DNA of 64,000 bases, from sequence record NC_106721.1. The stretch is one strand, 5' to 3'. Below the pieces are notes generated by a model. It was not told the DNA's origin. It saw nothing but the letters and a program-made list of their open reading frames with translations, and did no database searches. The DNA comes from Escherichia phage EC148. Each line of letters starts with the position of its first letter. Position 1 is the stretch's first letter. The position numbers and the translations under genes were made by a program. Positions 922-52,022 of the stretch are shown piece by piece.

Positions 922-1269
922 TTAGTTTAACCGTAAAGTATTATCTACTTCACCATTAATTGTTCGGCATTCTTCTGGGATTGCTGGTGTAGCCTTATAT
1001 TCCCACCATTCAGAACCGTCGTATTCACCACGTTCTAACCAAGTTCCATCAGTAAACCACACGTTACCATAAAGCAATTGCCCACCGAAACCAGAATCAT
1101 ATTTAAAGTCTAGATTATTTAGAAAATCTTCAATATCTTTTTCTGTATAACCTACGGGTAACACCCAAACTTCTTTGTCCCCATAATAACCGAATTCTAT
1201 CTTAATACACTTAACTTCAGAATTAATATTCTTTAAGGCAAGTAACAATTCTTCTTTAGCATTAATCAT
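922..1269 (-). CDS. hypothetical protein, 115 aa, Trp/Tyr/Gly-rich
   Basis: Intact ORF between tRNA genes on the same strand as the tRNAs. Confidence 0.5.
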   Translation of the reverse strand: MINAKEELLLALKNINSEVKCIKIEFGYYGDKEVWVLPVGYTEKDIEDFLNNLDFKYDSGFGGQLLYGNVWFTDGTWLERGEYDGSEWWEYKATPAIPEECRTINGEVDNTLRLN

Positions 1270-1295
1270 AGCATATTTCTCGTACTAGTTTAATT

Positions 1296-1372
1296 TGGCG
1301 CGACCGATGGGATTTGAACCCACATTCCCTCCCGTGACAGGGGAGTACCATTACCAAGCCAGCCCCGGTCGC
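1296..1372 (-). tRNA. tRNA-Asp (anticodon GUC)
   Basis: Acceptor GCGACCG/CGGTCGC perfect, T-loop TTCAAAT, anticodon stem CTCCC/GGGAG with loop CTGTCAC, CCA encoded. Confidence 0.65.
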
Positions 1373-1381
1373 ATAATTCAT

Positions 1382-1567
1382 TTACTCAGCTTTGAGTTTT
1401 TCAATAGCTGCATTAAGTTCTTTAAGAAACTTTTTTCGTACATTAAGACGGTTGAGACTTACTAGTATATCATGTTTAAGTTCTTCGATGTATTTCTTCT
1501 CAACTTCAATATTGTTGATAGTGCTATCACGATGAACTTCTAGCTGTGCAATTACATTCTTGGACAT
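1382..1567 (-). CDS. hypothetical small coiled-coil protein, 61 aa
   Basis: ORF with charged heptad-like sequence; co-oriented with neighbours. Confidence 0.4.
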   Translation of the reverse strand: MSKNVIAQLEVHRDSTINNIEVEKKYIEELKHDILVSLNRLNVRKKFLKELNAAIEKLKAE

Positions 1568-1669
1568 GCTTGTTTCCTCAGTTATTAATGAAAATGGTAT
1601 CTGTGACTGAATTCGATGTCAGCAATGATAGCTGGTTGGCTACCGGTTTACTTAACTCTACACAGAATT

Positions 1670-1753
1670 TGGCGGGCCGTGTAGGATTCGAACCTACGTT
1701 GTCTTTCGACATGGATTAACAGTCCACCGCCAAACCGCTTGGCTAACGACCCT
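1670..1753 (-). tRNA. tRNA with anticodon GUU (Asn-type) and a 13-nt variable arm
   Basis: Acceptor GGGTCGT/ACGGCCC, D-stem GCCA/TGGC, anticodon stem GTGGA/TCCAT with loop CTGTTAA, variable arm GTCGAAAGACAAC, T-arm GTAGG-TTCGAAT-CCTAC, CCA encoded; 84 nt. Confidence 0.5.
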
Positions 1754-1904
1754 AAATTTATATTGCTGACTAGGATTTTCACCTAGACGGAGTTAGCACC
1801 GTAGCGTGTAGCGGCATACCTCTCCAAACCGTGCCTCATCTTTCAATTACGGAGACAGTGTTCCTACGCGTGCCTGAATTGATTTAACAACTCTTTCAGC
1901 AAAT

Positions 1905-48831: not shown

Positions 48832-51600
48832 CTATGAGTTATCTGGCTTAATAAGCTCGCTAACAAGTTTCTTCAGTTCGGTTAATTCTTGCTCAAGTTT
48901 GTTAACTTTATCAGCTTGATAACGAAATGCGCAAGCTAGATCTGCCATAATGACGTTGTTATCAAGTGCTAATGTGTCATCTGCTTTGTCAACAACAATT
49001 TGGCGGTCTACATATTCTTCACCGTCATCGTTAACACCTATAACATCTGCAAAAATATCTCCACCAGGAATTAATTTTACATATTCCGGGTCTATTTTTA
49101 GAAGGTCTTGGGCTATTAAGCCAAATCGCTGTATGTTGCTTCCATTGTATTTAAACATTGTCGGAAGCCACTGCATAACGCGATCATAGCTTTCTTTTCC
49201 ATCTGTATAGATTATATCGTGCTTTAAATCTCTGTCAGAGTTAGCGGCCTTTTGAAAAATGAAGTTTCCATTTGATGACCATGTGGTTATATCGTTTGAG
49301 GCTGGTTGAAACTGGAAGTTACAGAAAAAATTACCATCACCACGAAGTCTTAACGAGCAAAAAGGCCAAGCATTATTTCCCTGTGGGATAAGACCCCAAG
49401 TTGCACGAATTGGATAACCACCAGTTGATTGTGTACCCCATGAAAGGCCAGGCGCCCATCCACCATCATTGTTAGGAATAATCTCGCCCCAAACAAGAGC
49501 ATTACCCCAATAGTTAGGATCATCCCAGCCCATTTGTTGGGTTTTGCCAGTGTATTGAGCAGAATGAGTTCTGCCGTCAGGGTAAAACTTGTGCATATAG
49601 GACTGTATCCCTGCTTGATACAATTCTATTCCAAAAGATTCAACGTGTGTGTCGCCTCTTCTGATTAAACCAGCGATAGCGTAATCGTCATACCAGTTGT
49701 AACGACTTACACCAGTCCATGTGTTTATTGGTGGATTCATGATTGAGAATAGTTGTGACGCATTGCGTTCATTCCCGTCTGCATAAATACCAGCCCCAGG
49801 AGCTAAGGAAATACTTTTCGCTCCCGAAAAAGTACCATTTTCATTAAACTGATAATACTGTGCTAACCCATTATGAAATACGCCTATTGTATGCTTTCCT
49901 ACGCCTACTTGAGTCTCAAAATACGACTGAGAAGAACCAATATCTTCGCCTTGGGTATTCTTTAGTTTTGAATGGTATATACCTGCGTTTGCAGTAACTG
50001 CATTTTCCGTTTCATTTTCAACATTAAGACTAAGGAACTTTGGCGCATGTTTCTCACCAAGCCCTATATTATTTCTGATACCATTCGCATCCTTAGCACC
50101 TGTACCACCAAATTGAATACCTAGTGGTAGCCATTGATCGGTGGTAGCATCATAAACGCCCCAATGATCCCCGTCAGCTGGAATGGTTAGATACTTGTTT
50201 TTATTTGGAGAATATAAAACTGTTTCTCCAGAATTCTGAAACAGCCTATCAACTCCTAAATTATATCTAGCACCTTCAGGAGTATCTGCTCCTGTACCCC
50301 CAGCCGCAGTTGATAATGGAAGAGTTTCCCATGAAATTCCGTCACCTGTTGCATTTCTCTGAAGTACAATAAGACCATCATCTCTAATAACAAATCTATA
50401 TAATCTATTATGTGAATATAAAAAAGTATGAACCCCATCTTGCACAAGTGAGTCTATAAGGAGTGTCTGACGAGAAGCATTGATATCCAACAGATCTGAA
50501 AGATTATTTTCTTTTAATAACGATTTACTAATGATACCTTCAGCTTTTCCAGCAGCCACTTCCGCGCGCCCAGCGTCTGTAGATGCGCTTTGTGCGCTAC
50601 CAGCAGCATTGCTAGCTTGTTGTCCTGCTTCGATAGCGCTATTGCTTGCTTGTGCAGCGGAAGCAGCAGCAGCATCTTTTAGCGTGGTAGTTTCGGACAC
50701 AGCAGCGTCCTTAATTCCCTGTGTGTCTATTTTTAGCTGCTCAACGTCTGATTTTAAAGCTACTGTCTCTGCTACTGCAGTATCCTTAATACCTTGTGTA
50801 TCTATTTTTAGCTGTTCAACATCTGATTTTAAGCCTTGAATAGTAGTTACTGATTGGCTAGCTGAGGCTGCGGAATGGGCTGCATTGGTTTCACTAGTTT
50901 TTGCATTGGTTTCACTAGTTTTTGCATTAGTTTCACTAGCTTTTGCATTAGTTTCCGAGGTTTTTGCAGCGGATGCTGATGCGGCGGCTTGTGCAGAGAA
51001 TATTTCTGCCCCATCTCTATAGCCTTTAGAATCCGAAGCAGAAGCAGCAGCATTAGTTTCACTAGCCTTTGCCTTATCTTCACTAGTCTTTGCTGCAATA
51101 GCAGAAGCAGCAGCATTAGTTTCACTAGCCTTTGCATTAGTCTCACTAGTTTTTGCGTTAGTCTCACTAGTTTTTGCGTTAGTCTCACTAGTTTTTGCAT
51201 TAGTTTCACTAGCCTTTGCCTTATCTTCGCTAGTTTTAGCATTAGTCTCAGATATTTTAGCTGCAGCTGCTGATTCCTCCGATTTAGTAGCTGATGCAGC
51301 AGATTGAGTAGCAGATGTAGCGGACTGAGTGGCAGAGGCTTCAGAAGCTCCAGCAGAAATAGCAGCTTCCTGTTCAGAGTTCTTAGCATTAAGCTCCGAA
51401 GTTTTAGCCGCTATCTCAGAATCTTTTGCAGCTGCAGCAGACTTAGCTGCAGCCTCAATAGAAGATACTAACTCACTTGCAGTAATAGAGCTAATAGAAT
51501 TACCTAGAGTTACTGTATATCTAGGAAACTTACTAGCAGTAGCTTTAGTATCATCAATATTTAATATTTGTTGTACAATAATTTTAGTAGTTACTGCCAT
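48832..51600 (-). CDS. ltf: L-shaped tail fibre protein (pb1-like) with internal tandem repeats
   Basis: Ala/Ser/Thr-rich fibre with heptad repeats AKTSETN, Gly-rich beta-rich distal region, C-terminal coiled-coil region; first late gene after the convergent terminator. Confidence 0.7.
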   Translation of the reverse strand: MAVTTKIIVQQILNIDDTKATASKFPRYTVTLGNSISSITASELVSSIEAAAKSAAAAKDSEIAAKTSELNAKNSEQEAAISAGASEASATQSATSATQSAASATKSEESAAAAKISETNAKTSEDKAKASETNAKTSETNAKTSETNAKTSETNAKASETNAAASAIAAKTSEDKAKASETNAAASASDSKGYRDGAEIFSAQAAASASAAKTSETNAKASETNAKTSETNAKTSETNAAHSAASASQSVTTIQGLKSDVEQLKIDTQGIKDTAVAETVALKSDVEQLKIDTQGIKDAAVSETTTLKDAAAASAAQASNSAIEAGQQASNAAGSAQSASTDAGRAEVAAGKAEGIISKSLLKENNLSDLLDINASRQTLLIDSLVQDGVHTFLYSHNRLYRFVIRDDGLIVLQRNATGDGISWETLPLSTAAGGTGADTPEGARYNLGVDRLFQNSGETVLYSPNKNKYLTIPADGDHWGVYDATTDQWLPLGIQFGGTGAKDANGIRNNIGLGEKHAPKFLSLNVENETENAVTANAGIYHSKLKNTQGEDIGSSQSYFETQVGVGKHTIGVFHNGLAQYYQFNENGTFSGAKSISLAPGAGIYADGNERNASQLFSIMNPPINTWTGVSRYNWYDDYAIAGLIRRGDTHVESFGIELYQAGIQSYMHKFYPDGRTHSAQYTGKTQQMGWDDPNYWGNALVWGEIIPNNDGGWAPGLSWGTQSTGGYPIRATWGLIPQGNNAWPFCSLRLRGDGNFFCNFQFQPASNDITTWSSNGNFIFQKAANSDRDLKHDIIYTDGKESYDRVMQWLPTMFKYNGSNIQRFGLIAQDLLKIDPEYVKLIPGGDIFADVIGVNDDGEEYVDRQIVVDKADDTLALDNNVIMADLACAFRYQADKVNKLEQELTELKKLVSELIKPDNS
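50690..50835 (-). repeat. about 72-bp direct duplication within the tail fibre gene
   Basis: Encodes the duplicated peptide SDVEQLKIDTQGIKD(T/A)AV(A/S)ET. Confidence 0.7.
50860..51300 (-). repeat. in-frame 21-bp tandem repeats within the tail fibre gene (heptad A-K-T/A-S-E-T/D-N/K)
   Basis: Units such as GCATTGGTTTCACTAGTTTTT / GCATTAGTCTCACTAGTTTTT repeated at least 12 times in two blocks. Confidence 0.8.
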
Positions 51601-52022
51601 TATTTAGTTACCCCATCACTGATAAATACTTTACCCTCCATTATACGAAAGGAGCTAATTGCAGATCCTATAACATCTCTAGTCATAATTATATCATAGT
51701 ATCCTGCGAATCGCTGACGAGGGTTATATTTATCTCTATCTTTAGATGCTCTAGCCCCTATATTTTCCACAGATTCTACTGGCAAACTTATAGCTACAGC
51801 CCCTTGAGCAGCATCAATAATATTAGTAGTAAAGGATGCTAATATCTCCGCATTCTCATCTAGGCTATTTTTTATAGTACCCCTTAGAGAATACCCGGTT
51901 AAGTTAACGGGGGTATTTGTAGGTGGATAAGTACTATCATCAACATCTAAGAACTGCATCATTAAACCATATGGTACTTTCTCATCTATTACTAAATCTA
52001 TAACTCTATTTTCAGTACTCAT
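51600..52022 (-). CDS. tail collar protein (T5 p132-like, 140 aa)
   Basis: Size and position between the pb4-like and ltf genes, as recalled for T5. Confidence 0.5.

Follow-up and report, generated by a model that had tools for sequence, protein, structure and literature searches.

Near-identical 21-bp tandem repeats in the lateral tail fibre gene of Escherichia phage EC148 very probably encode heptads of the coiled-coil domain already known to follow the 40-residue collar anchor in T5-like lateral fibres. The gene lies in a 64,000-nucleotide stretch of EC148 DNA (NC_106721.1), here called the window. Sequence comparison identifies the window as Tequintavirus DNA and positions 48832–51600 on the minus strand as ltf, the gene of the L-shaped (lateral) tail fibre protein (2769 bp, 922 amino acids (aa) and a stop in the open reading frame (ORF) list and its translation). 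The Ala/Ser-rich helical rod encoded by the repeats is predicted, from sequence and structural modelling, to be the inner arm of this side tail fibre. The feature is of an ordinary, known kind and opens no new question: the gene is present in public databases, and the domain type has been described for T5, DT57C and lambda. New are only the quantised length polymorphism of the rod, a conversion tract and the concerted evolution of the repeat units, the tract and a repeat-bounded deletion providing small, concrete examples of how a repeated coiled-coil gene evolves. All features described below are on the minus strand unless the plus strand is named.

Heptad repeats and the predicted rod

The ltf translation contains 13 strict units of the form AK(T/A/I)SE(T/D)(N/K), nine in a first block and four in a second, in agreement with a preliminary reading made from the letters of the window (hereafter the sequence-only reading), which had counted at least 12 in-frame 21-bp heptad units in two blocks. 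Block 1 (aa 114–183, 51052–51261) comprises the nine strict units, interrupted by one degenerate unit, AAASAIA, while block 2 (aa 212–239, 50884–50967) is formed by the four remaining 21-bp units. Tandem Repeats Finder delimits corresponding 21-bp arrays at 51050–51250 (9.3 copies) and 50881–50968 (4.2 copies, 91% matches), together with a 63-bp higher-order period at 51037–51156, and the longest exact direct repeat in block 1 is 41 nt. A single 21-mer unit, allowing up to three mismatches, finds nine matches in the 64-kb window, all within ltf, where 0.01 would be expected, and the base autocorrelation at lag 21 reaches 0.63, compared with 0.38 ± 0.025 in codon shuffles (shuffle maximum 0.47). 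The separate duplication listed in the sequence-only reading also exists, with a period of 75 bp (25 aa) and not the 72 bp proposed there. Its two tandem units (aa 257–281 and 282–306, 50683–50832, spacing 75) share 82% nucleotide identity over 68 aligned nt, and each consists of LKSDVEQLKIDTQG followed by IKD(T/A)AV(A/S)ET(V/T)(A/T), i.e. 14 + 11 residues.

Position-specific composition places 28 heptads in one unbroken register across aa 51–246 (50863–51450). Among these 28 rows, heptad position 1 is occupied by Ala in 23 and Ser in five, and position 4 by Ser in 26, the two exceptions being Y194 and F201, both in the conserved stretch DSKGYRDGAEIF. With small residues spaced three and four apart and Lys, Glu, Thr and Asn between them, the pattern is that of a coiled coil, in which Ala at position 1 and Ser at position 4 would form the core. 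Searches of the full-text literature with the motif strings KTSETN, SETNAK and AKTSET returned nothing relevant.

An AlphaFold2 (AF2) model of the monomer, covering residues 1–400 and built with 31 sequences, contains helices at aa 41–188 and 197–362, preceded by a low-confidence N-terminus without helix that appears disordered up to aa 41. Together with homology, this delimits a predicted α-helical, coiled-coil rod at aa 41–362 (50515–51480) that holds all of the repeats; at 0.148 nm per residue, its ∼322 residues would span roughly 47 nm. The helices are separated between the two blocks by a predicted break or hinge at aa 189–196 (SDSKGYRD, 51013–51036; pLDDT < 50). In this region G193, R195 and F201 are invariant, and the heptad phase is kept across the hinge, with Y194 and F201 both at position 4.

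The predicted boundaries can be set beside those of fibres already described. In DT57C LtfA, a long helix begins at T40 and forms a three-helix coiled-coil projecting from the collar, while the residues before T40 form a lasso and β-strands bound to LtfC (PMC10713586). T5 pb1 has been divided into an anchor (residues 1–40), a coiled-coil domain (41–218) and a fibre domain (219–1263) (PMC12750041), and residues 102–393 of lambda Stf constitute a proximal coiled-coil (PMC12617516). In EC148, aa 1–163 match the cryo-electron microscopy model of DT57C LtfA (PDB: 8hqz) with an E-value of 4e-33 (phmmer against the PDB), and aa 5–254 are 52% identical to aa 4–218 of T5 pb1 (BLASTP). On this homology to LtfA and pb1, aa 1–40 (51481–51600) are assigned as the N-terminal collar-anchoring domain, placed under the LtfC/p132 collar.

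The remainder of the gene, its relatives and its position bear out the identification as an L-shaped tail fibre gene made in the sequence-only reading. The tail fibre genes annotated in Escherichia phages T5_ev212, SUT_E1520, SUT_E420 and SUT_E520 share 99.7% identity with ltf, and those of MM-1, MM-2 and Elw 93–95%; all of these genes are exactly 2769 bp long. Matches to PHROG tail fibre families were obtained with the ltf product. Immediately upstream of ltf are the collar gene (LtfC/p132) and pb4, and the dut/D15 block is adjacent; the gene order is identical in T5_ev212, OSYSP, VEc33, MM-1 and T5. At the C-terminus, Peptidase_S74 (PF13884) is matched at aa 788–842 (E-value 7.3e-8, 33 bits against a cut-off of 22), within a putative intramolecular chaperone region at aa 788–922 (48835–49239) whose cleavage serine is probably that in the motif NSDRDLKHD; the T5 counterpart of this region has been described (PMC4690869). 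Anchor homology, gene position, a helix predicted from about residue 41 and the S74 domain are thus all found in the EC148 protein, which places the repeats in the known fibre layout of anchor, coiled-coil, distal fibre and chaperone. Fibres of the pb1/LtfA class are homotrimers, present in three copies per virion, that bind surface polysaccharide.

We propose that residues 1–40 would hold the fibre under the LtfC/p132 collar and that, from residue 41, three chains would associate into a parallel α-helical coiled-coil with Ala (position 1) and Ser (position 4) in its core and Lys, Glu, Thr and Asn facing outside. The rod would run to about residue 362, with the conserved irregularity at aa 189–196 along its length, and would support the distal, receptor-binding part of the fibre together with its self-cleaving C-terminal chaperone. 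The trimeric state of the rod in EC148 is suggested by analogy with its relatives. A Foldseek comparison of an AF2 model of the distal part (aa 351–922) with the PDB gave no match at E ≤ 0.001 and TM-scores of ∼0.1, a result that says nothing on the fold because monomer models of trimeric fibres are extended.

Rod length and exchange among repeat units

Landmark-to-landmark distances were taken in 64 homologues sharing the T5-like N-terminus, and rod length proved to be quantised. From the anchor to the GYRD hinge the distance is 156 aa in 39 proteins and 159 aa in 18, with variants shorter by 14, 28 and 49 aa (the last found twice) and singletons of 152 and 158 aa. From the hinge to the end of block 2 it is 56 aa in 51 proteins, 49 aa in ten (including isolates ESCO40 and FFH_1) and 63 aa in one, isolate VEc33. 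The third segment, which holds the 25-aa repeat family, measures 112 aa in nine proteins, 123 aa in five and 159 aa in OSYSP, so that its variants are +11 and +47 (= 11 + 36) residues, the extra 11-aa unit being seen in MET_P1 and VEc33 and the extra 36 aa in OSYSP. Expressed in heptads, relatives differ by −1, −2, −4 and −7, with +1 in VEc33. All of the length changes are sums of 7 and 11, save for the 3-residue hinge difference and the two singletons, and therefore preserve both reading frame and helical phase; 7 and 11 are the two classical coiled-coil periodicities.

Compared with the window at the DNA level, the short variant P0004 has one deletion, of 147 bp, with both ends inside an exact direct repeat of 32 bp. 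This is the signature of a repeat-mediated deletion, although the P0004 contig is a short-read assembly and the gap may instead be an assembly collapse. Whole-unit differences are also found in complete isolate genomes (one heptad more in VEc33, one fewer in ESCO40 and FFH_1, and 36 aa more in OSYSP). Together, the whole-unit differences and the repeat-bounded deletion fit slippage or unequal recombination changing the length of the rod, as had been suggested in the sequence-only reading. Because the units are near-identical in DNA, with exact repeats of up to 41 nt, replication slippage, unequal recombination and out-of-register gene conversion would all be able to act on them. Rod segments would be gained or lost as entire heptads of ∼1 nm or, in the second repeat family, as units of 11 and 36 residues, with the reading frame and coiled-coil periodicity left intact, and the same processes would homogenise the units within a genome. 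Rod length may also affect adsorption, flexibility or host range.

In a contingency locus, a change in repeat number shifts the frame or the spacing of a promoter and so switches expression. Phase variation of this kind was considered for ltf and rejected: the 21-bp unit is a multiple of three, and all natural length variants are in frame.

An alternative is that the repeats constitute an evolvability or length-tuning module, in which frequent gain and loss of heptads would match fibre reach to how thick the O-antigen or capsule layer is, with variants selected on different hosts. The strict quantisation of length differences among relatives, the existence of a repeat-bounded deletion and the near-identity that conversion maintains between units, leaving a substrate on which slippage can act, are all as this idea would have it. 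The distribution of lengths is not, as 57 of the 64 relatives fall into one of two block 1 lengths 3 aa apart, and 51 of 62 share a single block 2 length, in spite of differing distal domains. Indeed, the dominant rod length persists across very different distal receptor-binding domains in proteins of 723–1024 aa, which favours a geometric constraint over free variation; such uniformity suggests that the geometry of the virion, not the host, sets the length. We therefore consider host-driven tuning unlikely, and slightly less likely again its stronger form, in which units homogenised by intragenic conversion act as a built-in adjuster (∼1 nm per heptad) of tip reach, selected across O-antigen or capsule depths. 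A coiled-coil rod with one strongly conserved length class remains the preferred interpretation, and both the assignment of the heptads to a known domain and this conservation are additions to the sequence-only reading.

Exchange between units is visible in the window itself. In comparison with T5_ev212, an AKASEDK unit has been replaced by the neighbouring AKTSETN copy in a 22-bp tract at 51136–51157, which contains eight of the only 12 differences between the two phages over 10,769 aligned bp; SUT_E1520 shows the same eight tract differences from the window. All close relatives have AKASEDK; in the window, the sequence of the adjacent unit recurs here without a mismatch, offset by one repeat. 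The window's version of the tract was found in no record of the phage collection, where the best match was 97.2%. Among the four differences from T5_ev212 outside the tract, one is a synonymous change at 50929 in block 2 (ACT, where T5_ev212 and the next two units have ACC), which may be a second small conversion or a point mutation.

Units also vary together within a genome. The pair at aa 156 and aa 177 reads AKASETN twice in the window, AKSSETN twice in Elw and AKISETN twice in OSYSP. When ten units of the window are compared with Elw, OSYSP, MET_P1 or ABTNLsp4, six to eight of them resemble a paralogous unit of their own gene more closely than their positional counterpart in the other phage. 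The co-variation is ordinary concerted evolution of tandem repeats.

Some of our results weigh against the picture of a coiled-coil rod changing in length by whole units. Pfam offers no family over the repeat region, its matches in the protein being Peptidase_S74 and two sub-threshold chance matches, and the AF2 run was of a monomer only, with a mean pLDDT of 69. With one dominant length class, rod length looks constrained and not freely variable. For several of the shorter variants the source is a short-read metagenome or Logan assembly, in which tandem repeats can collapse, and some of the differences in copy number could therefore be artefacts; the private conversion tract could instead be an assembly or polishing error. 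These last points lead to the reading that assembly produced the arrays, their exact copy number or the homogenised unit. Tandem repeats are easily mis-assembled, the replacement of AKASEDK by AKTSETN occurs in no other record, and the short variants P0004 and P0031 were both taken from short-read assemblies. Against this, at least eight isolate genomes, sequenced independently, have the 2769-bp length and the unit layout in common at 93–99.7% identity, the frame is intact, and substitutions fall at codon position 3. The same layout in independent genomes differing by up to 7% means that the arrays are not an assembly artefact of the window; the artefact reading is not borne out, and we consider it very unlikely.

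Overlapping frames, neighbouring genes and module exchange

Three further ORFs overlap the repeats and their surroundings: one of 180 aa on the minus strand (50847–51389), out of the ltf frame and an echo of the repeat (MQKLVRL...), and two antisense ORFs on the plus strand, of 94 aa (50989–51273, repetitive, SLTSFCV...) and 119 aa (50480–50839). None is a gene in our reading. Substitutions at ltf codon positions 1, 2 and 3 number 28, 21 and 90 against MM-1 and 40, 23 and 133 against Elw, and within the heptad blocks 3, 1 and 8 (MM-1) and 7, 3 and 26 (Elw). This enrichment at position 3 in the ltf frame points to selection on that frame, and the other ORFs are therefore shadows, much as the sequence-only reading had dismissed the out-of-frame ORFs of this interval as repeat artefacts. 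That one of the three is instead a real, overprinted gene might be argued from their length and from the annotation of the 180-aa frame as a hypothetical protein in Salmonella phage SA001. However, the three- to five-fold enrichment at ltf codon position 3 extends to the heptad blocks, the alternative-frame translations are low-complexity echoes of the repeat, and the SA001 annotation stems from a 44-bp duplication that breaks ltf upstream. We attach almost no probability to an overprinted gene.

In SA001 (vB_SalS_SA001, MN445182.1, locus L007, 1403–4215), the 44-bp tandem duplication lies at nt 55 of the gene, in the anchor region (corresponding to ∼51546 in the window), and does not involve the heptads. 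Because of it, the SA001 ltf is annotated as three fragments, one of which is the 180-aa shadow ORF. The break would reflect either a fibre-less mutant or a sequencing error. Heptad slippage was considered as the origin of the split gene and rejected, the break being the duplication upstream of the repeats. A comparable case is found in lambda (NC_001416, locus L011), where orf206b (1148–1768, minus strand) is annotated antisense to that part of stf (orf-401) which encodes the Ala/Ser-rich coiled-coil, and looks like a shadow ORF of the same kind as those in the window. For annotation, the repeats thus explain spurious ORFs over this part of T5-like genomes, one of which has been deposited for SA001.

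The gene preceding ltf (51600–52022, 423 bp, 140 aa) encodes the collar protein LtfC/p132, assigned from the annotations of relatives and from a match to the PHROG ‘collar tail protein for L-shaped tail fibre attachment’; the Pfam family LtfC matches the homologous collar protein in a relative's contig (L012). The collar stop codon and the ltf start codon (ATG) have one base in common (51598–51602), an overlap suggesting that translation of the two proteins is coupled. A single 423-bp LtfC/p132 gene is present in the window and in other T5-like genomes, unlike in the T5 reference annotation (NC_005859, locus L010, 8056–8480), where the collar region appears as two short coding sequences, T5.135 (264 bp) and T5.136 (186 bp). 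The split may represent a frameshift or an annotation split in the T5 reference.

The distal two-thirds of the fibre and its chaperone (48835–50550, ∼aa 350–922) are 80–92% identical to fibre genes of otherwise unrelated 50–60-kb siphophages, namely Salmonella phage slyngel, Escherichia phages atuna and G29-2 and Aeromonas phage SD04, which carry a lambda-type PF08400 N-terminus in place of the T5 anchor. The same distal module is present in several 49,946-bp records labelled ‘Campylobacter phage’. This is a clear instance of receptor-binding module exchange, its junction lying where the coiled-coil ends. For engineering or comparison of these fibres, the boundary for distal-module exchange lies at the rod end, at ∼aa 310–362; the rod is much longer than that of T5 though the whole fibre is shorter, and its length changes solely in steps of 7, 11 or 36 residues, with one length strongly preferred.

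Comparison with known fibres

The EC148 fibre is like T5 pb1 in gene position, in its anchor and first helical part, in the AKTSETN heptad motif and in its C-terminal S74 chaperone. The two differ in proportions: the rod is ∼322 aa in EC148 and 178 aa in T5, the distal part ∼425 aa compared with 1045 aa, and the whole protein 922 aa compared with 1396 aa (NC_005859), close to the value of about 1400 aa given for pb1 in the sequence-only reading. The units are also far more uniform and tandem in EC148 (13 strict copies) than in pb1, and past the rod BLASTP detects no similarity between the two proteins. The likeness to DT57C LtfA (8hqz) is closest at the N-terminus, where aa 1–100 are nearly identical and T40 is conserved at the start of the helix, and extends to the LtfC homologue encoded directly upstream of the fibre gene. 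The DT57C rod diverges after ∼aa 100, without long AKTSETN arrays, and unlike EC148, DT57C has branched fibres of LtfA and LtfB.

Beyond the T5-like phages, the fibre formed by T4-type gpwac (fibritin), a trimer, evolves in length as coiled-coil segments are gained and lost; its sequence is unrelated and its role is in the whisker and collar. Lambda Stf shares with EC148 the Ala/Ser-rich heptads, identical AKTSETN and AKSSETN units and a single register. Indeed, A-x-x-S-x-x-x heptads that include AKTSETN and keep one register for more than 100 residues occur both at aa 51–246 of the EC148 fibre and in lambda orf-401, where two AKTSETN units and one AKSSETN unit keep to a single register over aa 127–343 (∼210 residues). 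Weak similarity to the N-terminal regions of three phage depolymerases of known structure points in this direction too. Lambda belongs to another phage family, and its Stf has a PF08400-type N-terminal attachment domain and a different distal domain; its heptad units are dispersed and degenerate, whereas those of EC148 are near-identical tandem copies.

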